Positions 1,850-27,608 of a stretch of 32,000 bases of DNA are shown piece by piece. The stretch is from the NCBI RefSeq assembly GCF_028912405.1, contig NZ_JAKELO010000002.1, positions 969,276-1,001,275 on the forward strand, written 5' to 3'. The stretch comes from Methanogenium marinum. GTDB lineage: Archaea > Halobacteriota > Methanomicrobia > Methanomicrobiales > Methanomicrobiaceae. A model generated the notes under the pieces. The model was not told where the DNA came from, searched no databases, and was given only the letters and a program-made list of their open reading frames with translations. A program made the position numbers and the translations under genes. The first letter of the stretch is position 1; each line of letters begins with the position of its first letter.

Positions 1850-3505
1850 TTATTGTGCAGCAAAACGTTCTTCAATCATCCGGAGGGATTCAATCTCATC
1901 CGGACTTTTATCATCCCGCAGACGAATAAAGCGAGGGAACCGAAGGGCAAACCCACCGGCATAACTGGGACTCTTCTGAACTTCCGCATACCCCACTTCC
2001 ACCACAATCTTCGGTTCCACGTGAACCATCTTTCCCTCCTCTGACAAAACAAGGTCAGAGAGGACCGCATACATCTCCTGCAATGCCTCATCTGAAAATC
2101 CCGTCGCCACCTTGGAAAGCGGAATAAACGACCCGTCTTCACCCAGACAGGAGAGAAGGAAGGAACCGAATATGTGTGCCCGTTTCCCTTCACCCCATTC
2201 TGCACCGGTGACCACCAGATCAATGGTGTCCACGGCGGGCTTTATTTTCACCCATAGTTTGCCACGGACACCCGGTGTATAGGGAGAGCGGGGATCTTTG
2301 ATCATGATACCTTCGTGCCCGTCGTCAAGGGCATTGCGGTAGAGGGCATCAATCTCTTCTTCATCACCGCTCATGAGCTGTGGAGCCACATACCCGTCTG
2401 AGGCATCATTTATCAGGCCATTGGATACAGCTGCCTCAAGACGCTGCCTGCGTTCAGCAAAAGGAAGATCAATGAGCGTTTCACCATCTATCCAGAGAAT
2501 ATCAAACAGATTCGGCTTAAGCGTTATTTCCTCAATGTGAGAGGCAATATCATGTTTGCGCCGGAAACGACGGAGCACATACTGGAATGGCAGAGGACGG
2601 CCGTCACGGACGGCGATGACCTCTCCATCAAGGATGACGTCATGTGATGTGGCCGCATTGAGCATTGCAACGACATCGGGAATGGCATGCGTCACTTCCT
2701 CCAGTCTTCGTGAGTACATCCGGCAGATGCCATCCACTTTATGGAACTGGAACCGGGTGCCATCATATTTATATTCGGCCGCAACAACCCCTGTTTCGCT
2801 GAGCATCTCAGTCACCGTCCCCTGTTTGGCAAGCATCATCTTCAGCGGCCGGAACGGTTCGATATGAACTACATTCAGGGCAGCTTCACCCTTTCGTGCA
2901 ATGAGCGCCACTTCGCCAAGGTCGTTTGACACCTGATATGCATGCTCCACAGCAGCAGGGCTGACGGCAAACGCCCCTGCAATTGCATCCCGCATCGTCC
3001 CTTCACCGATACCGATACGGAGTTCTCCCAAGAGGAGACGGGCAAGATATCGCCCTTCAAGAGGGGAGGCATTCGCAAAGAGCCTGCGCAATATCCGGTC
3101 TTTCTCCTTCTGTGACTTATTCCCCCCGGTTGCAGCAAGGAGCGTGAAATCACGGCCAATGTCAGCGAGTGTCAGGGACTCTGAAAAAAAAGACATCTGC
3201 TCTTTTTTTCCGAGCATTGTCTCAACGGATTTACCGGGATCACCACTCCGGTTGACTGCACTGACAACAGCCCGACGATCCCTGCCTGCCACATAGGCAA
3301 CCGCATCGTAGACACTGTTCGGACCGACACCTATTTTCTCCTGGCTCCAGTCTGGGAAGGGCCGCCCCATCAGGTAGCGAATAAAAAGGGGGAGGTCTGC
3401 TTCATCCAGAGGCGACAGGGCGTCCCGGACGACAACGGTCATATCAAGTCTGCCGGCAGTTCCTTCGAGTGCCTCACATATATGGGAAAATTCCAAAAAA
3501 TCCAT
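1850..3505 (-). CDS. lig: ATP-dependent DNA ligase
   Basis: Adenylation motif AEYKYDGTR (KxDG) and typical archaeal ligase domain order. ATG at 3505 is preferred over TTG at 3523: it lies 7 nt after the upstream MBL gene stop and is preceded by GAGGTG. Confidence 0.93.
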   Translation of the reverse strand: MDFLEFSHICEALEGTAGRLDMTVVVRDALSPLDEADLPLFIRYLMGRPFPDWSQEKIGVGPNSVYDAVAYVAGRDRRAVVSAVNRSGDPGKSVETMLGKKEQMSFFSESLTLADIGRDFTLLAATGGNKSQKEKDRILRRLFANASPLEGRYLARLLLGELRIGIGEGTMRDAIAGAFAVSPAAVEHAYQVSNDLGEVALIARKGEAALNVVHIEPFRPLKMMLAKQGTVTEMLSETGVVAAEYKYDGTRFQFHKVDGICRMYSRRLEEVTHAIPDVVAMLNAATSHDVILDGEVIAVRDGRPLPFQYVLRRFRRKHDIASHIEEITLKPNLFDILWIDGETLIDLPFAERRQRLEAAVSNGLINDASDGYVAPQLMSGDEEEIDALYRNALDDGHEGIMIKDPRSPYTPGVRGKLWVKIKPAVDTIDLVVTGAEWGEGKRAHIFGSFLLSCLGEDGSFIPLSKVATGFSDEALQEMYAVLSDLVLSEEGKMVHVEPKIVVEVGYAEVQKSPSYAGGFALRFPRFIRLRDDKSPDEIESLRMIEERFAAQ

Positions 3506-7852: not shown

Positions 7853-9034
7853 ATGGACCTTCTGACACATCATCCATACAATAAAGACAAACTCCCAAAA
7901 CCTGCCTTTACTCTGCGTGAGGCTGCGGGATCAGTTGGCGACTTCGGAACAATTCTTCCGATTATCTTCGGAGTGGCCCTTGTTTCAGATATGAATATCA
8001 GCAATATTCTCTTTTTTTTCGGTCTCTGGTTTATTATTTCCGGGTATTACTACCGTCTGCCGGTGCCCATTGAACCAATGAAGGCTGTCGGAGCGGTGGT
8101 GATTGCCGGTTCACTCACCCATGACATCATCGCTGCGTCAGGCATTATCATCGGAATATTCTTTCTTCTGGCAGGCGTGATGCGCTGGATGGAGGCACTG
8201 AAGAAATACATCCCAAAAAATGTCATCCGGGGTGTTCAGGCAGCCCTTGCACTTCTGCTGCTTCGTTCAGCCTTCGGGTTTGCAACCGGGGATATCATTC
8301 CCTTCGCTGTGGCCACGCTTATCATCGCACTTTTCTGGGTCGGTGCAAAGTATACCCGGTTGCCGGATGTCTCAGCACTCATCGTAGTATTCGGTGGGGT
8401 GGGAGCAGGCATTCTCATCACGGGGATGCCCGAATTTGTCCTCCCTGCCCTTCCAACATTCTACCTGCCTCCCCCGGAGGTATTCTCCCCGGCATTCACT
8501 GACCTCGTCCTCCCGCAGATTCCACTTACCATTACCAATGCCATTCTTGCAACATCTCTTCTGACGATTGATCTCTTCCGCCACGAGATCAAACCTGACC
8601 GCCTCTCTGCCACTATAGGTGTGATGAATCTGGTCACGGTTCCATTCGGAGGATTCCCCATGTGTCACGGTGCAGGGGGCATGGCAGGACAGTATCGCTT
8701 CGGAGCACGCACCGGCGGGGCAAATATCATTGCAGGTGTCATCCTCCTGGCCTTCGCCTTCTTCTTTGCATCAGCAAGCGTGCTCTCAATCATCCCCACC
8801 GGCATATTCGGTGCCCTCCTCCTGTTTGTAGCGATAGAACTGGGTATTCATGCAACCAAAACCGACTCTCTTGCGGTGACCGGCATCATGGCAGTGGTCT
8901 CCTTTGCAGGTAACATCACCATTGCATTCATTGTAGGCATGATACTCGCATGGGGACGTATCTGGTACCTGAGAAAGAAAGGACTCGAAACAGACACTGA
9001 AAAGAGCAGTGTTTCAGAAGAAACGGAAGAATAA
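7853..9034 (+). CDS. MOT1/MOT2-family (MFS_MOT1) putative molybdate/tungstate transporter
   Basis: GDFGTILPI and PVPIEPMKAVGA match the two signature motifs (GDLGTxIPI, PVQPMK) of MOT-type molybdate transporters. About 10 hydrophobic segments. Confidence 0.7.
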   Translation: MDLLTHHPYNKDKLPKPAFTLREAAGSVGDFGTILPIIFGVALVSDMNISNILFFFGLWFIISGYYYRLPVPIEPMKAVGAVVIAGSLTHDIIAASGIIIGIFFLLAGVMRWMEALKKYIPKNVIRGVQAALALLLLRSAFGFATGDIIPFAVATLIIALFWVGAKYTRLPDVSALIVVFGGVGAGILITGMPEFVLPALPTFYLPPPEVFSPAFTDLVLPQIPLTITNAILATSLLTIDLFRHEIKPDRLSATIGVMNLVTVPFGGFPMCHGAGGMAGQYRFGARTGGANIIAGVILLAFAFFFASASVLSIIPTGIFGALLLFVAIELGIHATKTDSLAVTGIMAVVSFAGNITIAFIVGMILAWGRIWYLRKKGLETDTEKSSVSEETEE

Positions 9035-9770
9035 CAGAGGGCTGAGCGTTCCATTGTATGGGCACTGCATGTCAGATGCACCCGTACAACGGAAGGCCCC
9101 CATCATGGGACACATAATACCGGAATGAGTAGCCCGATTCAGGTTGAGAGGAAGAGTCTCTTCCTGAACGCACAAAACCACCAGGGCCATCCATCAGGTT
9201 TGTGGGAAGGATGGGTGTTATACTGGAGCGGTGTATGACCCCCTTTGCCTATCCATCGATGCGGTAGACAAAAGAGGAGCAGACCTTGTGATACGACCAC
9301 TGGCTGTATGAAACCCCCGCCATGAGATTGGATTTGCTCCTGTAAGGGAGAGTTGATGATTCCACATTGGAAGAGGGGGAGCAGGGGTTGAACACAGGTT
9401 TGTGCAGACGGAAGGGAGCTAAAAAACACCAGCGAGCTGACCTGAGTAAGGGAATGCTCTGAATGAGCGTTGGGCGAAAAACCCCTTTAGGCCGAATACT
9501 ACTGGTGATCTGAGGCGGGTACAAAAAACATGGGGTATGGTTCCATGCCAATATACCTGCTTCCCGAAGCCCCCTTCCGAAAGGGTCTTTAGCATCCGGT
9601 TCTGATATCCTCATCAGAGCATCGGGGTTATCTGAATATAACTCTTTACATTCGCACAATTGTTAATAATAATTAATTACCAAAAACCAGACACTCTTCT
9701 GCTATTTCCTTTGACAAAAAATACCTGCCAAACGTACTATTATGGCATTCCGGGACGAACGCATTCCTAT

Positions 9771-11018
9771 ATGTTGAAACCGCTGCAGGTTGAGACCTGG
9801 GTGCAGTCCCGCCGGTCTGACCTTGATGATGTACGTGAGCCGGTCGAGGCAATAATCCGGCAGGTGCGGGAGGGAAAGGACGCTGCACTCCGGGATTTGA
9901 CTGCCCGGTTTGACGGAATCGAAATAGATGATTTCCGCGTGACAGAAGAGGAGATTGAGGCGGCCTATGATGAGGTTGACACCGAAATCACGGAACGCCT
10001 CATCGAGGCAGAAGCACGGATAACACAGTTCCACGAACTCCAAAAGCGTACCGGGATGTGGCTGCAGGAGACCGAGCCCGGTATCACTCTCGGAGTGAAG
10101 ACGACAGCTCTGCACCGTATCGGGGCCTATGTCCCCGGCGGGCGGGCCGCATACCCGTCCACCGCCCTGATGACGGCCATCCCTGCACGGGTGGCAGGTG
10201 TCAAAGAAATCTGCTGCTGCACACCGCCGCCCATCCATCCCCTGACGTTGGTAGCCCTTGATATCGCCGGTGTCACTGAAATATACCGCCTCGGCGGAGC
10301 ACAGGCAATCGCTGCAATGGCTCTCGGGACGGAATCAGTAAAGCCAGTCCAGAAAATAGTCGGGCCGGGGAACATCTTTGTGACTGCAGCAAAGATGATG
10401 CTGCGTGACCATGCAGAGATTGACTTTCCGGCAGGCCCGTCTGAGATTGGCATCATCGCAGACGCAACCGCGATACCTGAATATATCGCAGCAGACATCA
10501 TGGCCCAGGCAGAGCATGACCCGAAGGCCGCCTGTGTCCTTGTCACAACCGATCCAAAAATTGCAGAGGCAGCGTCTGCGGAAGTGGCCCGGATGTTCCA
10601 GGAGAGTCCACGGAAAGAAATCATCGAAAAGGCACTCGCCAACTCCGGCTACATCATCGCAGATACGCTGAGTGAAGCCATTCGTCTGATAAATGAGATT
10701 GCACCCGAACACCTCTCCATCCAGGTGGCTGACACCTTTTCCGTCCTATCAAAGATAGAAAATGCAGGCTCAATCTTTGCCGGGCCCTTCACCGCGGTTG
10801 CCTGCGGAGACTATGCCTCCGGCACAAACCATGTTCTCCCGACAGCAGGATATGCCCGGATGTACTCAGGCCTCAATGTCGACCACTTCTGCAAGACGTC
10901 AACCATTCAGATGATTGACCGGGAAGGGCTTGAGGCGATTGGGGATATTGTCGAGACACTTGCCGATGCGGAAGGGCTGCATGCCCATGCTGAGTCGGTG
11001 CGGATTCGGCGACGATAA
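9771..11018 (+). CDS. hisD: Histidinol dehydrogenase
   Basis: Full-length HisD pattern ([20 protein letters not shown]). The start is set at ATG 9771 ([10 protein letters not shown]). The TTG at 9660 lies in an AT-rich promoter-like tract. Confidence 0.93.
10696..11018 (+). repeat. Direct repeat copy A: 3' end of the intact hisD, repeated at 12108-12430
   Basis: By hand alignment there are about 29 mismatches in ~323 nt against 12108-12430, with no indels. Both copies run to a stop codon (TAA versus TGA). Confidence 0.9.
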
Positions 11019-11044
11019 AAACCATAGAAACCAGAAATCAACTA

Positions 11045-11062
11045 TTTTTGAATACAATTTTT
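11045..11062 (+). terminator. Two T5 runs after the hisD stop
   Basis: TTTTT occurs at 11045-11049 and 11058-11062, within 45 nt of the TAA. Confidence 0.35.
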
Positions 11063-11197
11063 AGAATTTCGCAGAACAGGGAAGTATGTGATGCATAAAA
11101 CCGGAATGTCACGGAAAACATCCAACCAACAGCATCCTCACAAAAACGAATACATACCCGACAAATATCAGGATATCAATACGGGGACATACTATTC

Positions 11198-11413
11198 ATG
11201 AAACTTGACATTGTTCTTGAAAAGGAAGAAAGCGGAGGATATTCAGCCCACTGTCCAGCCCTTAAGGGGTGCCACTCCCAGGGAATGACCGGGGAAGAAG
11301 CACTCAAAAATATGCAGGAAGCCATTGAACTTTATCTGGAAGTCACCCACGATATTGCCTCCCGGCAGGTAACATCCCGGCCGGGTTCAATCCTCATTGA
11401 TCTCGCAGTATGA
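11198..11413 (+). CDS. hicB: HicB-family antitoxin (UPF0150-type, short form)
   Basis: LEKEESGGYSAHCPALKGCHSQGMTGEEALKNMQEAIELYLE is the classic HicB N-terminal domain pattern. Confidence 0.75.
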   Translation: MKLDIVLEKEESGGYSAHCPALKGCHSQGMTGEEALKNMQEAIELYLEVTHDIASRQVTSRPGSILIDLAV

Positions 11414-11539
11414 GTTACAAAACACCTGTTCCCGATATTCGGCAAAGAGATGGTCCATGTATTTTTAAAAGTCAGATTTCAGGTTGAACATAAACGCCAA
11501 GGATGCAAACACGATTTGTTTATGCCCCTAAATATCTGA
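11414..11539 (+). pseudogene. hicA: Truncated HicA-like mRNA interferase toxin remnant (41 codons)
   Basis: The ORF is too short for the ORF track. A GTG directly abuts the hicB stop. VTKHLFPIFGKEMVHVFLKVRFQVEHKRQGCKHDLFMP resembles the first half of HicA (..SGKEvikaLeklGFevvrqkGSHhil.), then stops early. Confidence 0.4.
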
Positions 11540-11619
11540 GGACCGCATCTTTCACATTGTGGGATGATCCGGGAGTCAGGCACCCATACCTTTTTTTCCT
11601 TTTTGACGAATGTGGCTTT

Positions 11620-12051
11620 ATGGTTTCAGAATATTATAAAAATGCAGAGGGGTGGGGAGTTTTTATCGGTGGGCCCATCGCGATTTTGTATGTATTACTA
11701 AATATCTATTATAATCATTCAATTCATGAAGCACCCATATCTGGCTGGATTTACGTTGGGCCATTTTCATTCATAGTTTCTGCTGGCTTATTTATTTACC
11801 TGCACCTGATATCACGCAGGAATCTTACCGAAGAGGAGGATATAAAAAAGGCTCATCAAAACTATCTGATAGTGATCGCTTCTCTTATTGGTTTTTTTAC
11901 CTGGCTTCTTGTGCTTGTCATTCTTGACCTGATTCACCTTGACATAAATGTGCTCTTGTCAGTATTGTGCGGAAATGCTGTTATTTTACTACTATATTAT
12001 CTGTTGAGAGCGAGTGACAATAAACGAAGTAAAACTGTTGTTAACCAGTAA
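11620..12051 (+). CDS. Small AT-rich hypothetical membrane protein (about 4 TM)
   Basis: ORF 11503-12051. The internal ATG at 11620 (MVSEYYKN...) avoids overlap with the hicA remnant. Four hydrophobic helices; no recognisable family. Confidence 0.45.
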   Translation: MVSEYYKNAEGWGVFIGGPIAILYVLLNIYYNHSIHEAPISGWIYVGPFSFIVSAGLFIYLHLISRRNLTEEEDIKKAHQNYLIVIASLIGFFTWLLVLVILDLIHLDINVLLSVLCGNAVILLLYYLLRASDNKRSKTVVNQ

Positions 12052-12107
12052 TTTGTCTTTTAAAAAATACTGGTTCATGAACAGGGAAGCCATCTCTCTG
12101 ATGAACA

Positions 12108-12430
12108 AGATTGCACCCGAACATCTCTCCATCCAGGTGGCTGACACCTTTGCCGTGCTCTCAAAAATAGAAAACGCAGGCTCAATCTTTGCCGGCCCCT
12201 TCACCGCGGTTGCCTGCGGAGACTATGCATCAGGCACAAACCACGTCCTCCCAACAGCAGGATATGCCCGGATGTATTCAGGCCTCAATGTCGACCACTT
12301 CTGCAAGACATCGTCCATCCAGATGATCGACCAGGAAGGGCTTGAGGCGATTGGCGATATCGTTGAGACCCTTGCCGATGCGGAAGGGCTGCATGCACAT
12401 GCTGAGTCGGTAAGGATTCGACGACGGTGA
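12108..12430 (+). pseudogene. hisD: Orphan 3' fragment of hisD (last ~107 codons): direct repeat copy B, displaced or imported gene end
   Basis: Encodes [19 protein letters not shown]...ESVRIRRR, with only 3 aa differences from hisD residues at 10699-11015. The sequence upstream of 12108 is unrelated to hisD. Confidence 0.9.
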
Positions 12431-12442
12431 TAAATGGAATTA

Positions 12443-12448
12443 TTTTTT
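12443..12448 (+). terminator. Oligo-T (T6) run after the hisD fragment stop
   Basis: TTTTTT lies 13 nt after the TGA at 12428-12430. Confidence 0.3.
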
Positions 12449-12756
12449 GATGAGGAAACAGACCGAAGCTGATTCATATAATTTCAGAGCGTTCATTTGA
12501 CCCCATATGATTAATGAAGATAAATTTACATTTTAAATTCTCATCACCGTTCTTCTTCATTTTAGTGATATACCACTTTTGTAGAAAATTGATATTTCAT
12601 TTTTAAATTCAATTTTTAAGGATTTTTTTGGCCTCGTATAAATCCTTCAAAAAAACATTGTGCAAGCATTATATGAAAAGGAAAATGAATAATCCATCAA
12701 TCTCAATTTTTCCAATGATCACTCGATTGATTCCATAATTGATAGTTGATAATCAG

Positions 12757-13677
12757 TTATTTTTCAATTCCCGTCCCGGATCTATCATTCAAATTTCGTT
12801 TGAATTCTGCATATTTACACTGGCACTTTAAAAATTCATGTAGTTTATTCAGATCTAATTCTGCGTCTTCATAATCTTTAGGGTATATTACAATAATTAA
12901 ATTGTTTGTAAACCTTTTTTCTGAGCATGCTGCTATAAATGATTTTATTATTTCCTGAATTATTATTTCTTTTTCAATCTCAATTCTTGAAAAACCAGTG
13001 CCTAATATTGGAATTACTAATGGATCTGTGCTTCCATGAGATGAAATATAATCCCATAAATTCGAAAGTGATAATAATATATTCTCATAAGAAGAGGAGG
13101 CCACTCCGTATCTATTCATTTCAGCCAGAGCTAAAAAGTATGCAGTAACATCATTATTTTTTATTTGAATTGTTTTACCTATTGGATATCTATTGCACTT
13201 TCCTGTTTTAATACTGTCAATAGTGAAATCATTTTCCAATTCAAGCTGTTTTTCAATTAATTCATCCAATAATTCGATTTTTCCTTCGAAATATTTGGTT
13301 GTAAATTGTCCCTGAATACTTTTTTTAAAAATAATTCCTTCTGTTAAATTAGTATCAAAAGTTGTATTCGTCCCAACAATATAATCCCCTTTTTGTTCAA
13401 AAAAATCTCCAATTACTATACTTATGGTAATATCACGGTTGTTTAATTTTTCATTTATAGAATTTATTGGTCGATTAATGAATACTGAAATAACCAGTGC
13501 TACCAGAATGAGAATAGCTAAAAACCAAACACCTAAGGAAACAATATATTGGCTACATATTTTTGGAATAAAATATGAAGATATTTCCAGAATTAACCAT
13601 AATGCACCTAATATTGCTAAAAAAAGGGAGAATATATTAATAATCCTCTTTTTTTGCAAATAATCTTTTAAAACCAT
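12757..13677 (-). CDS. Membrane-anchored Macro-like domain protein, type II Thoeris ThsA-like effector candidate
   Basis: Two N-terminal TM helices (IINIFSLFLAILGALWLILEI; IVSLGVWFLAILILVALVISVFI). The following domain has ITISIVIGDFF..GDYIVGTNTTFDT and LVIPILGTGFSRI, which fits Macro / ThsA-Macro patterns. The gene starts 12 nt downstream of the TIR gene and is very AT-rich. Confidence 0.6.
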   Translation of the reverse strand: MVLKDYLQKKRIINIFSLFLAILGALWLILEISSYFIPKICSQYIVSLGVWFLAILILVALVISVFINRPINSINEKLNNRDITISIVIGDFFEQKGDYIVGTNTTFDTNLTEGIIFKKSIQGQFTTKYFEGKIELLDELIEKQLELENDFTIDSIKTGKCNRYPIGKTIQIKNNDVTAYFLALAEMNRYGVASSSYENILLSLSNLWDYISSHGSTDPLVIPILGTGFSRIEIEKEIIIQEIIKSFIAACSEKRFTNNLIIVIYPKDYEDAELDLNKLHEFLKCQCKYAEFKRNLNDRSGTGIEK

Positions 13678-13689
13678 TATATTTCCATA

Positions 13690-14193
13690 TTACAGCCCTA
13701 AATTCGTATAAACAGTATCTGTATAGTAATATGGTCCTTGTTTTCCTTCTTTCTTATATTCATCATGTGAATCAGGCCAATTATCTAATGCATGTTGAAT
13801 TATTTTGGCATTAAAACTTGTGTAAATAACAAGTTTATCTTTTATTGCTGATGGACATTTTTCAGAATCTCTTGATCTAAGGCCGTTTAAATTAACCCCA
13901 ATTATAGGCAATCCCATTTTTAATGCAACTTCCATTTCCCATTTTACAAATTTTGTTAAATATCTTGTTTTATCACCAATGAGAACAACAAATGCTTTTG
14001 AATTGGCAAACCGTTCTCTTAATTTTCGCTTTATTGTTTCTTCAGAACTTGAATCTAATGCGTTATTTAGATCATGTGCATCATTAAAATTAAAATCAAT
14101 TCCATCATTATTTTTCCATGCTACCATGAGCCGGTAATAATGAATATCAGTATCACCGTCAAAACAAACGTACGTTTTATTTCTATATGCCAT
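13690..14193 (-). CDS. TIR-like domain protein (ThsB / DUF1863 MTH538-type)
   Basis: YRNKTYVCFDGDTDIHYYRLMVAWKNN..FNFNDAHDL and AFVVLIGDKTRYLTKFVKWEMEVALKMGLPIIGVNL match the conserved blocks of ThsB-type TIR proteins, including the W-E glutamate. Confidence 0.85.
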   Translation of the reverse strand: MAYRNKTYVCFDGDTDIHYYRLMVAWKNNDGIDFNFNDAHDLNNALDSSSEETIKRKLRERFANSKAFVVLIGDKTRYLTKFVKWEMEVALKMGLPIIGVNLNGLRSRDSEKCPSAIKDKLVIYTSFNAKIIQHALDNWPDSHDEYKKEGKQGPYYYTDTVYTNLGL

Positions 14194-14510
14194 ATATACA
14201 CCAAAATGAATATGCTGTGATTCATTTTAATTTAGAATAAGCTTCTGATATGAATAACCACCATACAAAAAATTACACCCTCACATAAGCCCGGAGCGTG
14301 CCGTTCTCAGTCGGGACAACCCATAACATCCTCTCAAAATATCCACCAATAGCGGCCCCAATATAATCCACAATATAAAAATGGTTTAGCAAATAAAAGG
14401 CACAGCATCCACATTCTTCCGGCAACAAACAAGAACTAAAAATACGCCCATTTTGTCCCCAAATCCCAAAACACAGGGAGTCTAAAAAGGTGAAAAAGGG
14501 GAGAAAAGGG

Positions 14511-15842
14511 TCACGGCAAATACCCGTCCACACACTCCAAAAACCGCTCCATCGTCTCCCGCGAATACGGCCCTTCCTCATAGGCCGTGACAATCGTCAT
14601 TGCACCCTTAAAGGTGGAGAGGGCCATGAGGAAACCATACGGCCAGCAGACACACGGAAGGAGACAGACATCCCGGAGACCAAGGGGGCGGCCGTCCGTT
14701 CCCTTTAGCGGGAGAAAGTCTTCTTCCCTGAATATCCCGATATTCGAGAATACCGGATTTTTCTGGCCTGTCGTTTCGTACATCTGCATCATCCCGTCAA
14801 AAAACTCTTTGACCGCAGGCATACCACCTGCACAAATATCCTCATAGAAGAGGATGCACCCAAGTCCCATTCCAAGACCCTCCGCTTTCCGCTGTTTTGT
14901 CACTGTTGTTACCTGGCCGATGACATCCTCCAACCGTGCGTCTTCAACGGCGGTGATGGTAACCTCGTAGGCGACCGAGAGGTTCAATGGCGGATACTCC
15001 TTCGGGCCGTTTGCATCAGTGAGGGGGCGTCGGAGGTCTGCAGAAGTGAGAAGGGAACGTGGTGCATCGATATCTGCAGGGTCGTCCCGGACAGCACGAA
15101 AGGCCAAAAAAAAGGCACCGATCATGATGTCATTTACTGTGGCACCATGTTCTTTCCCAAACTCTTTTGCCCGCCGGAGCCGGTCGGACGAAAGGGTTCG
15201 TGAGGCAATCCGGGAATTCCCCTTTTCCATTCGTTCGGTGGGGAACCGCCATCGGTCCACAAAGGGCTCCTCGTTTTGTTGCGCCTCTTTCATCTCCTCC
15301 GCCGTGAACCTGGCAAGAACCGGACCGGTGCTGCGGTCGTACCACCCGGTGGGGGCGGGCCGGAAGTCCGAATCTGTTTCAATACCCCGATAGTTTGCAA
15401 AGAGCTGCCGGGCCAGATCCCTGAGGCCGCCTGCGTCACAGAAACCGTGGTGGCAGGTGACCGTTACCCGGTCGCCTCCCTTTTCCCGTGACAGGCTGAC
15501 CCGCAGTTGGGGCCCGTTCCGGACGTCAAGGGGTGCGGGGGGAGACTCAGGAGGCATCGGATTATCATCTCCATCTCCATCATTAGACGGAAGACAAACA
15601 AAGGCCCGCTCCCACTCTCCTTCAGGAATCTCGTCCCAGCAGGGCATACCGTCCCCTTCCGCAAACCGTGACCGGAGATAGGGATTTGATTCGAGCAGGC
15701 GCATGGTGGCCATCCGCAGCACCGCTTCGTCGAGGTGCCCGTCAAACGCAAAGACGATGTGCATCGTCGGGTCATAGATACGCTCAAAATAGACATTGAA
15801 GAGGTCAAAGGCAGGTGCGGGATGGCCGGGGGGACAGATCAT
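14511..15842 (-). CDS. Stand-alone condensation-domain-like acyltransferase (HHxxxDG superfamily)
   Basis: The 443-aa ORF carries VTCHHGFCDAGG (HHxxxD.G) at the position expected for condensation / WS-DGAT / PapA5-like enzymes. GC is host-like. Confidence 0.6.
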   Translation of the reverse strand: MICPPGHPAPAFDLFNVYFERIYDPTMHIVFAFDGHLDEAVLRMATMRLLESNPYLRSRFAEGDGMPCWDEIPEGEWERAFVCLPSNDGDGDDNPMPPESPPAPLDVRNGPQLRVSLSREKGGDRVTVTCHHGFCDAGGLRDLARQLFANYRGIETDSDFRPAPTGWYDRSTGPVLARFTAEEMKEAQQNEEPFVDRWRFPTERMEKGNSRIASRTLSSDRLRRAKEFGKEHGATVNDIMIGAFFLAFRAVRDDPADIDAPRSLLTSADLRRPLTDANGPKEYPPLNLSVAYEVTITAVEDARLEDVIGQVTTVTKQRKAEGLGMGLGCILFYEDICAGGMPAVKEFFDGMMQMYETTGQKNPVFSNIGIFREEDFLPLKGTDGRPLGLRDVCLLPCVCWPYGFLMALSTFKGAMTIVTAYEEGPYSRETMERFLECVDGYLP

Positions 15843-16066
15843 ATCAGATGATATTCTTTCAGAAGAGGATATGTGCTTTCACACGCTGTTTTCGCGGCAT
15901 CCTCAGGAATGACAAATAAACAGATACCGGAATAGATCCTATTTCTGGATCAGACACGAAAAAAGATTTCAGAGCATCAATGGCACAGCATCGTCCCGTT
16001 ACGGGAATCATTTTGCTGCATTGCGCTCCACTCTCAGTATGAAGCGATTCCCCCCGAAGGTGACTT

Positions 16067-17641
16067 GTGACTGACAGAAACCCTGCCCTGTGCAGTGCCC
16101 TACTCGGTCTTGGTGCCGGAATAATCATCACCGTAGTGATAACCGTCTTCTCAAAAGGCTGGTGGCACCTCACATCATATAACCAGACCCTCATGGGGAT
16201 GGGAGTTGTCCACACAGATGTATCCCTTCTCTTAGTGCTCTTCTTTGCCGGATGCTGCATTCCCTTCATGCTTCATACCAGTTCCCGGCCCACAATTCTC
16301 ATGCATGCCGCCCTGACCGGCCTCATCGCCGCAGGCGTGGCCCGCATCCTGCCGTTCGTCGGGAAGCCCGCCTATATCATCTCCTCGCTTCTCTCAACCA
16401 TACCGCAACTCCTCATCATCCTCGCCTGCGGAGTACTGGTGGCCGCCTTCGGGGGACTCTTTGCCTCATTCATCAGGAAGGAGGAGGAGGGGGGACTGGG
16501 GTTTGCCCCTCTCATCCCGGTGGCCATCGTCACCATCGCGGTGATTGTCCTCCCACTGCTTCTGGCCACTGTAGGCACATCCACCGGCATTATTCCCCCT
16601 GCTCCGTATTCGTGCGGCCCGTCAGAACAGCCGACCGACCTCTTAGTAATCAAACTCTCCTCCAGTGGCGATCTCGAATGGAAAACAACCGTGGACATCA
16701 ATACCTACGACGGAGCAGATGCCCTCACCGAATATTCAGACGGCTATGCCATCGCAACAACAGAATACTGTCAGGAATCCAGTATCGTGCATCTGATTCT
16801 GTTTGACCGGGAGGGAACCACCCTCAGGCAAACGGAAGTCAGAACTGAATTTGGTCAAGTATCAGCCATCGTCCCCGCACCCGACAACAGGTTCTTCCTT
16901 GCAACAGACACGCCGGGAATCCTTCGCATCGGTCACGAGGGAGAGACCGTCTGGATAAAGTCTCTGGTAAACAAGAGTCAGGGCCCGGCACCAATCTCCC
17001 TTTTGGCACGGAATGATGGCTCCTTCTGTGCCGCCTGGCAAAACCAAATCGTCTGCCTGACAGACAACGGCACCAGACTCTGGGACACTACCCTTAACGC
17101 CGGCAGCGGACCGGAGGTAATGCTCATCTCCCCGGCAGATGCAGGTGGCATCCTCATCTGCACCGAGGGAAACCATGTATTTAACGGCGAACACTTCGAG
17201 ATTCCCCTGATGGCGATTCGTCTGGACGCAGACGGCACCATCCTCTGGGAACAGACGTTCGGCAGTGGAAATGCAGATACCCTGCTGGGTGTCTGGAAAA
17301 ACCCGTCGGGTCATACTATTCTCTATCGGACAATCACATCCCCCAAAAACCTCTGGGGAAAAATCGTTCGGGTATATACCAGTCACCTCATCACTTTGAG
17401 TGACGATGGCACCGTAACCGGATTACAGGAGGTGGAAGATACCGGTGGAGACGTCATCCCGTCACCCGTCAGAGGATACATCTCGGTCGACACCGGTGAG
17501 GAGAGCATTACGATTACCGGATATGATGCCGGTCAGAAGATCTGGAAGAGAGAATATGATATGCAGGCCAACCCGTACTCTCTCAAGGGCATGGGAACAG
17601 CAGACGGCGGATATCTCATCGCCGTCTCTTCTCCTCTCTGA
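16067..17641 (+). CDS. Membrane-anchored beta-propeller (PQQ-like repeat) protein
   Basis: N-terminal multi-TM region followed by repeated ..G..lW.. blades (GDLEWKTTV, GETVWIKSL, GTRLWDTTL, GTILWEQTF, QKIWKREY). The GTG start is uncertain. Confidence 0.55.
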   Translation: MTDRNPALCSALLGLGAGIIITVVITVFSKGWWHLTSYNQTLMGMGVVHTDVSLLLVLFFAGCCIPFMLHTSSRPTILMHAALTGLIAAGVARILPFVGKPAYIISSLLSTIPQLLIILACGVLVAAFGGLFASFIRKEEEGGLGFAPLIPVAIVTIAVIVLPLLLATVGTSTGIIPPAPYSCGPSEQPTDLLVIKLSSSGDLEWKTTVDINTYDGADALTEYSDGYAIATTEYCQESSIVHLILFDREGTTLRQTEVRTEFGQVSAIVPAPDNRFFLATDTPGILRIGHEGETVWIKSLVNKSQGPAPISLLARNDGSFCAAWQNQIVCLTDNGTRLWDTTLNAGSGPEVMLISPADAGGILICTEGNHVFNGEHFEIPLMAIRLDADGTILWEQTFGSGNADTLLGVWKNPSGHTILYRTITSPKNLWGKIVRVYTSHLITLSDDGTVTGLQEVEDTGGDVIPSPVRGYISVDTGEESITITGYDAGQKIWKREYDMQANPYSLKGMGTADGGYLIAVSSPL

Positions 17642-17721
17642 AAGGAGGGATGAATGAGGGTGTACAGGCGGGGCAGGACAGAGATACAGGAAAAAAACTG
17701 GCGAAATCCCAGGTTACTACT

Positions 17722-18147
17722 TCATGAAATCCCCGAGAAAAACAACAGCACCCACAGAACCGAGAGAGGGAGGGCAAGTATTCTCGGAAGATTCTCTTTT
17801 TTTGAAGACATCCACCCGATCACGCCGAGAATGAATGGCAGAACCAGATGGTATCCTGCAAAACGGATCAGATAAGCTGTATCCATTGGATACGTCGCAA
17901 AACCAGGTGAGAGGAGAATAATGAGAATGAAGAAAACATACGAGAAAAACCCCGCAATAAATGCCCGGATACTGTCGCCGGTCATATATCCGAACAGCAG
18001 GGCACCAGCAGGATACGCAAAGAGCAGAATAACGGCAAGAATTGGGTACGCATAGGTTCCAACAGTGAGAATCGCAAAGCCGAGAAGATAGAGAACAAAA
18101 AGACCGTTTTTTCTCTCAGGACTTAGCCGTGCATACCCTTCTTTCAT
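17722..18147 (-). CDS. Hypothetical small membrane protein (4 TM)
   Basis: 141-aa ORF, strongly hydrophobic. No family recognised. Confidence 0.45.
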   Translation of the reverse strand: MKEGYARLSPERKNGLFVLYLLGFAILTVGTYAYPILAVILLFAYPAGALLFGYMTGDSIRAFIAGFFSYVFFILIILLSPGFATYPMDTAYLIRFAGYHLVLPFILGVIGWMSSKKENLPRILALPLSVLWVLLFFSGIS

Positions 18148-18345
18148 GGGAGGAGGATTCCATCTTCTCTTCCATGAAGGTTTGCAGGGGGAAATCTCAT
18201 TTTTCCGGTGTACAATTGCTGTACCAGACTACCTTACCGATGGAGTGTATCTTTTCTGCCGCCAAACACCGGAATCAGTACAACATAGTAATAGATTTTG
18301 CATTTGGCAGTGATGCAATAACCGCATATACGACCTTAACCAAAA

Positions 18346-19248
18346 ATGTACCTGGTTAAGGGAAATATGAATTTTATCCTCGTTTTCTTTGACTTTTTCA
18401 TAAATTCATTCGCTCTGGTCAGTGTTACCTTTGCATTGTTTTCGGTTTTGATATATCTGATAATACAGAAGCTCAAAAATGAAAAATATCAGTTCTTTAC
18501 CGCAATTGCATGCGGTTTTTTCCTGGTGGCAGTCTCCAGCGGTTTTTCCGGGATCAGTTTAACAGGTGAGATTACCCGAACAATTGGAACAGTTCTGATA
18601 CTCATCGCACCCCTGATTGTCTTTAAACGATACCTGCATACAAAAGACGAACTGATAGCAGTATTTCTCATATCTGTCCTCTACCCGGCATACTTTCGCT
18701 CCTCACAATACCAGTGCGGAGGCCCTGCCATGGTCGGATACTACCCGTGGTATGTTGCGGTTCTGGGAGATTGTATCGGCCCCCTTATTCTTTCACTCGC
18801 TGCGGTAAGCACCCTGATTGTTATCAGACGAGTCTATGAAAAACTGAAGCCGGGTAAATGCATGTTGATTATATTTGGGTTACTCATTCCCGCCACAATA
18901 TGGTTCACCTACGCTGTCGCATCAGCCTCGGTTGCAGTATTGATACTCATCATTCTCAATGCATGTATGAAAGATGCAGGGAATCACCGTGATTTCAGGA
19001 TTTCAGCAGGAATGATCATCTCAGCGGTAGTGATCGCTTTGCCCTGGAACTTCCTGGCAGGACTCCCGTGCATCCGAAATTTCTTCCCAATATGGATTAT
19101 TCCTGTTCTTGCAGTATCCGTTGGGGCCGCTGCCCCTCTCTATTACATACAGTCAAAGATACCGGAAAAATGGATGGAAATCTCTGCCTTCACATTATGT
19201 TTCATCGTTTCTGTGATGATACTCCCTTTTACTGGTCTTATCAGCTGA
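18346..19248 (+). CDS. Hypothetical polytopic membrane protein
   Basis: 300-aa ORF with about 8 hydrophobic segments. The alternative start at 18367 (MNFILVF) is possible. Confidence 0.5.
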   Translation: MYLVKGNMNFILVFFDFFINSFALVSVTFALFSVLIYLIIQKLKNEKYQFFTAIACGFFLVAVSSGFSGISLTGEITRTIGTVLILIAPLIVFKRYLHTKDELIAVFLISVLYPAYFRSSQYQCGGPAMVGYYPWYVAVLGDCIGPLILSLAAVSTLIVIRRVYEKLKPGKCMLIIFGLLIPATIWFTYAVASASVAVLILIILNACMKDAGNHRDFRISAGMIISAVVIALPWNFLAGLPCIRNFFPIWIIPVLAVSVGAAAPLYYIQSKIPEKWMEISAFTLCFIVSVMILPFTGLIS

Positions 19249-19273
19249 TGGCCAGAGAAATGTCTGTGCTGTC

Positions 19274-20092
19274 TCACACATAATTCTGATCTTCATCCAC
19301 CGGGACGGAACCCACCACCGCCGCCTTCATCCGGGCAATGTAGTCAGAGAGTTCCCGCTCCATGCCCGCCAAATCCCCGACATGTCTCTCAACAATCTCA
19401 ACAATGGCACTGCCGACAATAACCCCGTCAGCGCCTGCCTCAACCGCCTGCCGGGCATGGGTCTCTGTGGCAATTCCAAAGCCAAGGGCGAGCGGTAGTG
19501 AGGTCTCTTTCCGGACTCTCTGGATGAGAGGAACAGCGGCCTCAGAGAGCGTCTCACGTCTCCCGGTCACCCCGGAAAGGGAGACGAGATAAAGAAAACC
19601 GCCGGCCAGATCTGTGATCTTTTTTACCCTCTCCGGCGGGGTGGTCGGTGTCACCGTGAATATCGGTGCAATTCCAGACTCTGTCGCATACTGCATCACC
19701 AGATGGCCTTCTTCAACCGGCATATCAACGATCAGAATGCCGTCAACACCGGCCGCTTTTGCATCCTTATAGAAGCGTGCTGGCCCGCGGGAATAGACCG
19801 TGTTGCAGTACACAAGCAGGACAACCGGAACCTCTGATGTTTTCCTGATCTCTCTCACCAGTGCAAAGGCCGAATCGGTCGTTGCCCCGGCAGAAAGTGC
19901 CCGTTCATCGGCCCGCTGAATGACCGGCCCGTCACCCACCGGATCAGAGAACGGGATACCCAGTTCCAGAATGTCTGCTCCGGAATGAATTATTGTCTGT
20001 GCCACAGCAAGCGATGTTGTCAGATCAGGGTCGCCTGCCACCGTAAAGGCGATGAATGCCGGTCGCTCAAAGACCGTTTCAAATCTGTTCAT
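19274..20092 (-). CDS. trpA: Tryptophan synthase alpha chain
   Basis: [17 protein letters not shown] motif. The start is set at ATG 20092 (MNRFETVF...), overlapping the trpB stop by 14 nt. Confidence 0.92.
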
Positions 20093-25670: not shown

Positions 25671-25966
25671 TGTCCGGAATATCCCCTTGTGCCCTCCCTC
25701 TATGGATGAATTGATTTCGGATATTCCTGAACATAAATGAACCCGGATATATTGTTCGAAAAAAGTATTACACAAAAAATGCTGACATCTGAATCGATTC
25801 TTCCGATATCTGCTCTGAATGTATCTTTCCCGGCCTAAGCGTATTTGACTGCACATTGAATTCGTAAAAATGCAGGAGAATATCAGAACATACTGAATCT
25901 GAGCACCATTCTCAACCTGAGAAAGGGACAACTCACATTCAGTGTACTGATGTGAACAGGTATGGC

Positions 25967-27340
25967 TTACAACATCCCATTGACCGTCCCGTTGGTATCC
26001 CGCGTAAATATGAATGAGTCTGCTGATTCCGGGGTCACAAAAAACGTATCATTTCCTTCATAGAAGAGTTCAACGGACTCATGAGGCACAACCGAGGTGT
26101 AAAAAAGGCGATTGCCTTCAGTAAATACCGTATACGTCCATGTCTCATCCAAATCCGACGGATAAACTCCTACATATTCCCCAAGTTCTTCTGCTGTCAG
26201 GGAAACAGCCCTGCGATCGATCTTCTGTGGCAGGGAATACGGCTCGTTAAAGACAATTGCCGGAAGGTTTTCATGGAGACTTTCCATCTGCGCACGGTCA
26301 TGGTTTGAAAGGAAAATGACATACACATCTTCATCCGGGCAATAGGCAGTCTCCGAAACAAACCCTAACACATGCCCGGAATGGCCGATAAAGGTGCGGT
26401 TGGCAATGACGCCACTGGTAATCCCAAAATCGTATTCTGCCATTGCATCAAGCGACTGCGAAGTAAGGATAACACCAGGGGTTTGGAATGCCCGCTCCCA
26501 TAAAAAGAGATCTCCGGTCGTGGAGTGGAGCGATCCGGCACCGTACAGATTGTGGATATTCTGGAGATCGTAATGAATATGCTTCCCGTCCATTGTGGTA
26601 TACCCGGATGCACGATTGGTAAAAACATCGCGGGCATTGTCCGGTCCTGTGTTGGTCATTCCGAGAGGTAAAAAGAAATTCTCCTTAAAATATTCGTCAT
26701 ATGACAGGCCCGATGCTCGCTCGATTATGTAGCTTAACGTGGTGTAGCCGTTATTGGAATAGGCATATCCCTCGCCAGGCTCAAAGGTGAGCGGAAGGTC
26801 GGCAAACCGTTTCACGAGTTCGGGAAGTGCAATATCGTCATAATCGATAATCAGATATCCTCCCAGATTCGGGATCCCCGAGGTGTGGTTCATGAGATGA
26901 TAGATACGGATATCCTTCCACTGAGGGGCATCGGGAATATAATCCATAACCGGATCAGTAATATTCAGCCGCCCCTGCTCCTGCAGCTTCATGAGGGCAG
27001 CAACAGTGAACTGCTTGGTGTTCGAGGCAATAGGGAATACCGTCTGCGGGGTGTTAGGGACAGAGAACTCTTCGTTTGCCATACCGTATCCTTTCGAGAG
27101 GAGGATGGTATCACCCCGGGCCACCAATACAGTTCCGCTGAACTGACCCGCATCGTCAAGCGCCGTCATGTATTCGTCAAGATTTTTTGATGTCGCTTCG
27201 TCAGCCTGAGAAAGTGATATTGTTGTAGAGGCAGCGGCATCCGGATTGTCGCTTTCCGCCACCGGGGACGATGTAACACAACCGGCAGTAAAGATGATGG
27301 TAATAATAACCAGAAAAATTCCTGCAATTTTCAATTTCAT
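25967..27340 (-). CDS. Secreted or lipid-anchored serine hydrolase (beta-lactamase / PBP4* class C family)
   Basis: SxxK (ASNTKQF) and YxN (YSNNGY) motifs. The N-terminal signal ends in TAGC, which is lipobox-like. Confidence 0.85.
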   Translation of the reverse strand: MKLKIAGIFLVIITIIFTAGCVTSSPVAESDNPDAAASTTISLSQADEATSKNLDEYMTALDDAGQFSGTVLVARGDTILLSKGYGMANEEFSVPNTPQTVFPIASNTKQFTVAALMKLQEQGRLNITDPVMDYIPDAPQWKDIRIYHLMNHTSGIPNLGGYLIIDYDDIALPELVKRFADLPLTFEPGEGYAYSNNGYTTLSYIIERASGLSYDEYFKENFFLPLGMTNTGPDNARDVFTNRASGYTTMDGKHIHYDLQNIHNLYGAGSLHSTTGDLFLWERAFQTPGVILTSQSLDAMAEYDFGITSGVIANRTFIGHSGHVLGFVSETAYCPDEDVYVIFLSNHDRAQMESLHENLPAIVFNEPYSLPQKIDRRAVSLTAEELGEYVGVYPSDLDETWTYTVFTEGNRLFYTSVVPHESVELFYEGNDTFFVTPESADSFIFTRDTNGTVNGML

Positions 27341-27608
27341 AATTGTACCTCTCTCAATTCTTTTTCTGAATCACGGAACCACAACTCACACATTATATTC
27401 AGGATTCAGAATAAAAAATATGTGCCTTAATGCAAAAGAACTATTGAATTTATCTATCGTCCTGTTTGAGGATGCATTTAATTTTGGACATATATCTGTG
27501 ACAATTCGGCTATTGGGCTTATTTTCGAATTATTCTGCCACCGCATGCGTTTATCAGCACCTATATATTCCATTTTATCTGAGATACCTATCATTACCGG
27601 AGATATTC

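Follow-up and report, generated by a model that had tools for sequence, protein, structure and literature searches.

Some integrase-mediated islands and proviruses insert at the 3′ terminus of a gene for a tRNA or a protein, carry a replacement for that end and encode a tyrosine or serine recombinase within the element, usually beside the attachment (att) site, and defence islands and other integration hotspots are flanked by conserved core genes. Here we describe a 32,000 nt stretch of the genome of the methanogenic archaeon Methanogenium marinum (the window; contig NZ_JAKELO010000002.1, positions 969,276 to 1,001,275) in which the 3′ end of hisD, the gene for histidinol dehydrogenase, occurs twice, once in the intact gene (copy A) and once as an orphan fragment downstream (copy B). 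We consider it likely that the orphan is a recombination scar, left by an additive exchange in which related Methanogenium lineages took part at a cargo hotspot bounded by hisD and a condensation-domain gene. Homology-facilitated illegitimate recombination was defined in PMC3240628 and has been described in Acinetobacter baylyi, Streptococcus pneumoniae and Pseudomonas stutzeri (PMC3240628; references in PMC5361080). At the Rhs, contact-dependent inhibition (CDI) and type VI secretion system (T6SS) effector-immunity loci, orphan arrays produced by C-terminal displacement have been ascribed to such recombination, with no integrase (PMC5361080); with respect to mechanism only, the way in which Rhs and T6SS loci accumulate orphan 3′ ends together with immunity genes would be the closest natural analogue of the locus described here.

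A preliminary description of the window, made from the sequence and its open reading frames (ORFs), had reported a diverged direct duplicate of the hisD 3′ end, and an ungapped alignment bears this out. At an offset of 1412 nt, 10673-11018 and 12085-12430 match over 346 nt with approximately 90% identity, reaching 23 nt further 5′ than had been noted and adding three amino acid differences there; the similarity is confined to the hisD 3′ end, stopping on the right at the stop codon and on the left at 10673/12085. On the interval considered originally (10698-11015) we reproduced the reported counts, namely 28 nucleotide differences and one more in the stop codon (TAA versus TGA), no indels, and exactly three amino acid differences (S/A, T/S and R/Q). 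When 28 substitutions were placed at random, three or fewer amino acid changes were obtained in none of 20,000 trials (mean 19). Over the full 342 coding nucleotides there are 34 differences, distributed 5:2:27 over the three codon positions, with a synonymous divergence (dS) of 0.41, a non-synonymous divergence (dN) of 0.028 and a dN/dS of 0.068 (0.031 on the shorter interval). Differences that are so nearly all synonymous (27 of the 34 at third codon positions) indicate that the copies diverged as working hisD ends in different lineages, and the earlier claim that both evolved under purifying selection therefore stands. The dS between copies A and B (0.41) falls within the inter-species range of hisD ends (0.41 for copy A and locus L169, 0.44 for A and L001, 0.50 for B and L169; L numbers are our labels for the sequences compared, among them approximately 25 Methanogenium-like loci), and the substitution patterns support the view that one of the two hisD ends reached the M. 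marinum genome by horizontal transfer.

The same arrangement is present in contig L081 from an independent metagenome (SRR17593425), which corresponds to window positions ~11080-12200 with one 1-nt difference and reproduces hicB, the membrane-protein gene and the joint into the orphan; the structure is therefore not an assembly artefact. The sole difference between the two sequences over ~1.1 kb, one A in an A-run (11408-11416) inside the hicA remnant described below, fits either a decaying pseudogene or a homopolymer sequencing error. No other direct repeat of at least 40 nt besides the hisD pair was found in the window, and the longest identical runs between the copies, two of 32 nt, are scattered over the repeat and bear no mark of an att core. 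Copy B has three private replacements (E>K, T>S and R>Q) at residues that are identical in copy A, L169, L001 and L089, and at these three sites the base of copy A is present in all eight relatives aligned, a hint that suggests a short spell of relaxed constraint since copy B was stranded. The 138 amino acid ORF at 12014-12430 should be annotated as a pseudogene fragment.

The preliminary description had taken the repeats to bracket a 1.1-kb insert, a view that comparison with relatives does not support. Both hicB and the membrane-protein gene between the copies adjoin hisD in other lineages and are therefore its ordinary neighbours and not the insert. In five relatives with HicAB at the same interval (L089, L100, L092, L093 and L005), hicB lies downstream of hisD in collinear order, and in L002 it adjoins the downstream gene, which makes at least six relatives with hicB as a normal neighbour of hisD. 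The HicAB pair of the window is not intact: HicB is whole (PF15919) and hicA is a frameshifted remnant, the latter gene being whole in L089 and L092. The membrane protein is probably encoded by 11620-12051 (143 amino acids), and M. organophilum (L082) and L083-L086 have homologues of 143 amino acids with 73-80% identity immediately after their intact hisD; the window protein gave no Pfam match above the curated cut-off and no PADLOC match. A homologue with the same 110-nt upstream sequence was also found in L087 (SRR038530_82, 2547-3089), where its neighbours are a chemotaxis sensor and pyrroline-5-carboxylate reductase; this is a completely different neighbourhood, so the membrane gene also moves between contexts. 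As a further observation on hicA, the L002 gene contains ~240 nt of inserted AT-rich DNA close to its start (L002 15015-15253, corresponding to window position 11434); this insertion is found in neither the window nor L005 and may be a small non-autonomous element.

Two joints delimit the membrane-gene block. The first (J1, 11497/11498) truncates hicA: homology to the hicA of L089 and L092 stops at ~11497, and 172 nt of L089 hicA 3′ sequence are missing from the window. Against L089, whose HisD is the most similar (95%), homology extends without a break from a point upstream of hisD as far as 11497 and is regained at 14268, such that 2,770 nt of the window (11498-14267, comprising the membrane gene, the orphan and a Thoeris cassette) replace 172 nt of L089 and L100 (the 3′ part of hicA plus ~25 nt), an arrangement that corresponds to an insertion coupled to deletion of recipient sequence. 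At the second joint (J2), homology to the native 3′ flank of the membrane gene runs to 12095-12100 and homology to hisD begins at 12085/12086, the overlap being the 9-nt GAAGCCATC. The flank reads ..GAATAGGGAAGCCATCCTCTG.. in L082 and ..GAACAGGGATGCCATCTT.. in L083 (consensus of M. organophilum and L083, ..GAAyAGGGA(A/T)GCCATC..), and hisD reads ..GAGTGAAGCCATT.. (at the repeat start, ..GAGTGAAGCCATy..). The 9-nt motif is exact in the native flank of L082 and has one mismatch in that of L083, a comparison with relatives and not with the true parental sequences. By our estimate, such an overlap has a chance of ~1e-5 to 1e-4 at a random joint, which makes it very unlikely there, and it is characteristic of illegitimate joining mediated by microhomology rather than of an att core. 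A 24-nt imperfect inverted repeat that flanks the membrane gene (11462-11485 and 12043-12066) was also considered and judged to be a chance match, because its left arm is conserved hicA coding sequence and its right arm the conserved 3′ end of the membrane gene.

Judged by its contents in relatives, the hisD-condensation interval is a hotspot at which toxin-antitoxin, defence and other genes are found as cargo. The empty sites that were sought were found in seven relatives (L001, L003, L042, L090, L175, L176 and L177), in which the condensation gene directly follows hisD after ~30-325 nt (mostly 190-325). Besides the HicAB pairs mentioned above, the interval holds BNR-repeat proteins in M. cariaci (L006), the membrane gene together with a CarboxypepD_reg protein in M. 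organophilum (L082) and L083-L086, and the type II Thoeris cassette alone in L169. In L002 (Methanogenium sp. CSMAG_280, 11250-14700) it holds two ThsB-like TIR proteins, a caspase (Peptidase_C14) and a 325 amino acid protein without a Pfam match, ahead of HicAB, a gene set that may represent a defence system not yet characterised. On its right, the hotspot is bounded by a conserved non-coding flank (14268-14510) at which homology to L089, L100, L006, L082, L175 and L176 resumes at 14267-14281 regardless of the preceding cargo; a mechanically called 106 amino acid ORF overlaps this flank, and an Rfam scan of 9000-16500 at E ≤ 0.1 gave no match, flank included. As at known defence hotspots, the interval is empty in some relatives and elsewhere carries Thoeris II, TIR plus caspase genes or HicAB, but it differs from them in belonging to a methanogenic archaeon, in its very small size (0-4.6 kb) and in having no mobile-element genes present. 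Homology of the flanking DNA appears to be what exchange at this hotspot relies on. Identity to L169 is 97% for the Thoeris cassette and 72-90% for its flanks, and window 16685-18090 (the end of a PQQ-like repeat-protein gene plus a 141 amino acid ORF) is 94-98% identical to L002, as against ~82-87% for the neighbouring genes and hisD, so that the latter segment looks like a recent inter-lineage recombination tract. With such mosaic identities, recombination among these lineages is evidently frequent.

Orphan hisD ends occur independently in two relatives. In L092 (Ga0272441_10053018, 1916-2172), hisD, hicB and an intact hicA are followed by a 251-nt hisD 3′ copy with stop codon and terminator, which is 96% identical to the hisD of the same contig, with 9 of 9 differences at third codon positions, and which precedes PAS/histidine-kinase (sensor-kinase) and response-regulator genes instead of the usual downstream gene. 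In M. organophilum (L082, CP113361, 8696-9330), a copy of the flank and of the terminal 290 nt of the condensation gene follows the membrane gene and is fused without a gap to a hisD 3′ fragment. This fragment begins at the equivalent of 10876, has lost 51 nt internally between two GGAAGGGCT repeats and retains both stop codon and terminator; a CarboxypepD_reg gene and the intact condensation gene come next. The orphans begin in hisD at the equivalents of 10673 (window), ~10765 (L092) and ~10876 (L082), each with a different joint partner, and no one att boundary recurs among them. With three start points and three partners, a fixed attachment site is counted out, and the three independent orphans point to a recurrent, sloppy, homology-driven process.

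The explanation that we favour for the orphan, and regard as probable, is that DNA of a relative, containing part of hisD and its hotspot cargo, was taken in and added to the resident locus. One end would have been resolved by a homologous crossover in a conserved flank and the other by an illegitimate, microhomology-mediated joint, either through homology-facilitated illegitimate recombination of a linear fragment or, equivalently, through circularisation of the fragment by microhomology end-joining and its insertion by a single crossover. Both routes would stack new cargo beside old instead of replacing it and would strand a piece of the core gene in the middle. The arrangement seen in the window is hisD, hicB and the hicA remnant, then the membrane gene, then the hisD 3′ orphan, Thoeris II, the flank and the condensation gene, with illegitimate joints at 11497/11498 and 12085-12093. 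Possible homologous anchors lie on both sides (hisD on one, the flank and condensation gene on the other), with mosaic tracts nearby, and the crossover point was not located. Methanoculleus thermophilus belongs to the same family as M. marinum. Natural transformation is documented in that methanogen (PMC10133366) and microhomology-mediated end joining in archaea (PMC12281630; PMC2700283), and the prerequisites are plausible in this group.

The likeness to homology-facilitated illegitimate recombination lies in one end joined illegitimately at a short microhomology (here the 9 nt at the 5′ joint of the orphan), in insertion accompanied by recipient deletion (172 nt of hicA), in a related lineage as the probable donor and, in the proposed event, in another end that would be anchored by homology. 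The differences are that our case comes from natural genomes with no laboratory selection and from an archaeon (a methanogen), that single crossover of a circularised fragment would give an indistinguishable product, and that two nested joints are present here. The event is of a known kind, newly documented in a methanogen. Compared with the Rhs, CDI and T6SS arrays, the shared features are modules that enter by recombination in a conserved part, old 3′ ends and neighbours pushed downstream as orphans, no integrase, arrays that record successive events, and cargo related to conflict or defence. In contrast to those arrays, which are built on a polymorphic toxin with a variable C-terminus and a cognate immunity gene, the orphaned gene here is the housekeeping histidinol dehydrogenase with its conserved C-terminus, the hisD orphan has no plausible function or immunity partner, and the cargo is intergenic rather than placed in the variable end of a gene. 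The locus would stand as a clean natural record, with the joints preserved, of a methanogen gaining and stacking defence and toxin-antitoxin genes without mobile-element machinery: lineages separated at the species level would exchange DNA through homology, and now and then one end would be joined illegitimately. A small defence hotspot flanked by core genes is also documented here, together with a type II Thoeris system, in the Methanomicrobiaceae.

Several points count against additive recombination of this sort. Two separate illegitimate joints are required; the 32 kb examined leave room for a trans-acting recombinase elsewhere in the genome; and the sharp drop in identity to L169 at 12453 is not obviously predicted by plain homologous exchange. 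In addition, the direction of transfer is not polarisable (copies A and B and L169 are ~10% apart, and P = 0.37 for a breakpoint), and no sampled relative had a hisD end above 90% identity to copy A or copy B that would identify it as the donor, for which reason the evidence for transfer comes from substitution patterns rather than from direct observation. Inference likewise underlies the recombination pathway, the order of events and the choice of immigrant hisD end. It had been proposed that BLAST of the two copies would tell which of them matches the host lineage, but both are about equally distant from every sampled relative, and as the hisD ends of A, B, L169 and L001 are mutually ~10% apart, distance to relatives does not polarise native and immigrant copies. 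The intact HisD is 91-95% identical to those of Methanogenium relatives at the amino acid level, and the identity profile of copy A to relatives is that of the hisD 5′ part (for example, 89.5 versus 89.7% for L001). This profile, which matches both the hisD 5′ part and the upstream genes and is closest to L001 and L169, mildly favours copy A as the resident end. A maximum chi-square test for a mosaic within the repeat, based on which copy has the majority state, found no breakpoint or crossover point (P = 0.37). The orphan may have arrived with or next to the Thoeris cassette, or it may be the displaced resident end, with hisD, hicB and the membrane gene as the arrivals. A search for closer relatives through the fast-evolving condensation protein gave a best match of 80% identity, indicating that a near relative of M. 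marinum has not been sampled, and exact-sequence look-ups of the ThsA, ThsB and HisD of the window found none of them on record.

The preliminary description had explained the repeats differently, by an element with its own replacement 3′ end that integrated using hisD as the attachment site. In such a model the element would be site-specific and have the hisD 3′ end in its attP, the repeats would be attL and attR, and the 1.1 kb between them would be the element or its remnant. Direct repeats of a gene 3′ end, an intact target gene and diverged copies from different lineages are indeed shared with integrase islands and form the classical signature of 3′-end targeting, and an integrase may since have disappeared or may be supplied in trans. 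Nevertheless, no integrase, recombinase or transposase domain was found by Pfam in the scanned window ORFs of at least 100 amino acids or in the cargo ORFs of L002, L006, L082 and L092, and a tRNA scan of the window found none. Nor do the repeats bracket all of the foreign DNA: the low-GC Thoeris cassette (28.5% versus ~50% for the window) lies outside them, directly after the orphan and its T-run terminator, hicB inside them is syntenic, the DNA between them is the ordinary neighbourhood of hisD in relatives, and the novel block relative to L089 is 11498-14267. On its left, the orphan ends in a microhomology to the native flank of the neighbouring gene, and the other orphans begin elsewhere in hisD with different partners, one of them inside the condensation gene, all of which speaks against hisD as an attachment site. 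Screening of 2.9 million viral contigs with the orphan peptide gave no Methanogenium-like hisD fragment, only matches of 47-52% identity; ORFs were inspected in two of these four contigs, both with a long ORF over the match (428 amino acids in L171), and the 358 amino acid gene adjoining hisD in L171 has no integrase domain. We regard an integrated element of this kind as very unlikely, and the case shows that integrase-mediated integration cannot be concluded from a diverged direct repeat of a gene 3′ end alone. Of the related suggestion that the repeats form a substrate for excision or deletion, deletion holds in principle.

A dedicated docking site after the hisD terminator and before the flank motif, at which cassettes would be exchanged with precise ends, either independently of a recombinase or mobilised in trans, with the orphan as a by-product, would account for the presence of Thoeris at the same place in the window and L169, for the sharply bounded high identity from 12453 to ~14267-14297, for a near-identical cassette between hisD ends that are ~10% and condensation genes that are 13-28% diverged, and for the many cargos that abut the same flank motif. 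However, inspection of the cassette ends by eye found no terminal inverted repeats, target-site duplication or attC-like structure, coinciding boundaries would also be expected where co-transferred flanks are worn away by later homologous exchange with relatives that lack the cassette, and the Jukes-Cantor (JC) divergence of the flank (0.125) is not far from that of the cassette non-coding sequence (0.06-0.10); we therefore consider a docking site unlikely. Because the 97% identical Thoeris cassette falls off within a few bases at 12453, with flanks that are 10-28% diverged, there is also a hint that the interval from the hisD terminator to CACAxAAGCCCGGAGC might be a Methanogenium cassette-exchange site served by integron-like or trans-acting machinery outside the cassette, undescribed in archaea, with the hisD orphans as mis-products, a notion that we hold to be quite unlikely. 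That the hisD 3′ end was duplicated in tandem within this genome and that its non-functional copy then drifted was the reading that the preliminary description had attached to equal closeness of both copies to the same relative; the copies are in fact about equally distant from every sampled relative, but the reading itself is rejected by the codon positions. An unconstrained orphan should have about two thirds of its changes at positions 1 and 2, as opposed to the 7 of 34 observed (binomial P = 4e-4 for seven or fewer, even if only half were expected), and a dS of 0.41 equals inter-species divergence, and the DNA after each copy is unrelated; we consider local duplication extremely improbable. 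To the same degree we discount an assembly artefact that merged the hisD ends of two strains, since, although mixed assemblies can yield diverged near-duplicates, the window belongs to a 2.17-Mb M. marinum contig and its structure was reproduced independently in L081.

Type II Thoeris systems, the antiviral activity and signalling of which are known only from bacteria, pair a ThsA with transmembrane and Macro domains with a TIR-domain ThsB and signal through histidine-ADP-ribose (His-ADPR) (bioRxiv 10.1101/2024.01.03.573942; PMC11204291). The window holds what is by its gene content a complete system of this type, with a predicted antiviral function: as in known systems, the two genes are neighbours on one strand and each gives a full-length match to its type II profile; the difference lies in the archaeal host. 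ThsA is matched by PADLOC over residues 17-284, and its translation has a visibly hydrophobic N-terminal stretch of ~65 residues, a putative transmembrane region. In L169, the cassette directly follows a long hisD (at least 216 codons) and is 94-97.5% identical to that of the window, with identity boundaries at 12453 and ~14265-14297; on the left, identity steps from 54% in the 22 nt after the orphan stop codon to 100% in the next 58 nt. As the dS of the Thoeris genes is far below that of the hisD ends (Table 1), the cassette moved between lineages approximately 5-6 times more recently than the hisD alleles split. An 8-nt inverted match, ATTCATAT, at the cassette ends was not convincing as a terminal repeat. 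We also set aside a functional link between hisD and His-ADPR-signalling Thoeris, as unrelated cargos fill the same site in relatives, and the position of Thoeris beside a histidine-biosynthesis gene is probably a coincidence.

Table 1. Features of the hisD-condensation interval in the window and divergence values for its segments.
Feature	Position	Strand	Evidence or value
Intact hisD (histidinol dehydrogenase, 415 aa, ATG at 9771)	9771..11018	+	Pfam PF00815 E = 4e-165, profile 4-410 of 411
Repeat copy A, last 114 codons plus stop of intact hisD	10673..11018	+	Alignment
hicB-like antitoxin gene, 71 aa	11198..11413	+	PF15919 E = 8e-9
hicA toxin-gene remnant, frameshifted 5′ third, ending at joint J1	11410..11497	+	Aligns to intact hicA of L089 and L092 (77 aa, PF07927)
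Membrane-protein block with ~110 nt of its own upstream sequence, GC 38%	11498..12084	+	DNA homology to relatives, 11510-12100
Joint J2, 9-nt microhomology GAAGCCATC	12085..12093	+	Common to native 3′ flank of membrane gene and hisD
Repeat copy B, orphan hisD 3′ end (114 codons, stop codon TGA), followed by a T-run terminator of its own (12443-12448)	12085..12430	+	Alignment
Type II Thoeris cassette, GC 28.5%, ~1.8 kb	12453..14267	-	Pfam and PADLOC profiles
thsA (transmembrane + Macro)	12757-13677	-	PF20016 E = 5e-51; PADLOC ThsA1 E = 5e-73
thsB (TIR)	13690-14193	-	PF08937 E = 2e-18; PADLOC ThsB1 E = 2e-80, 167/167 positions
Conserved non-coding flank, 243 nt, beginning ..CACATAAGCCCGGAGC.. 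(CACAxAAGCCCGGAGC)	14268..14510	.	Homology to relatives
Condensation-domain gene, convergent with hisD, right-hand core gene	14511..15842	-	PF00668; conserved across Methanomicrobiales
Divergence, window versus L169, Thoeris genes			97% identical, dS 0.06-0.08
Divergence, window versus L169, Thoeris non-coding			JC 0.06-0.10
Divergence, window versus L169, flank			JC 0.125
Divergence, window versus L169, condensation gene			72-87% identical
Divergence, copy A, copy B and L169 hisD end, pairwise			dS 0.41-0.50

The window is chromosomal, and its core genes comprise Nre, DNA ligase, hisD, the trp operon and serS. Outside the hisD-condensation interval, two further segments vary relative to L001, namely 15880-19307 (the PQQ-like repeat protein and ORFs of 141 and 300 amino acids without a Pfam match) and 25672-27544 (a beta-lactamase-family gene); each is present in some relatives and lacking in others.

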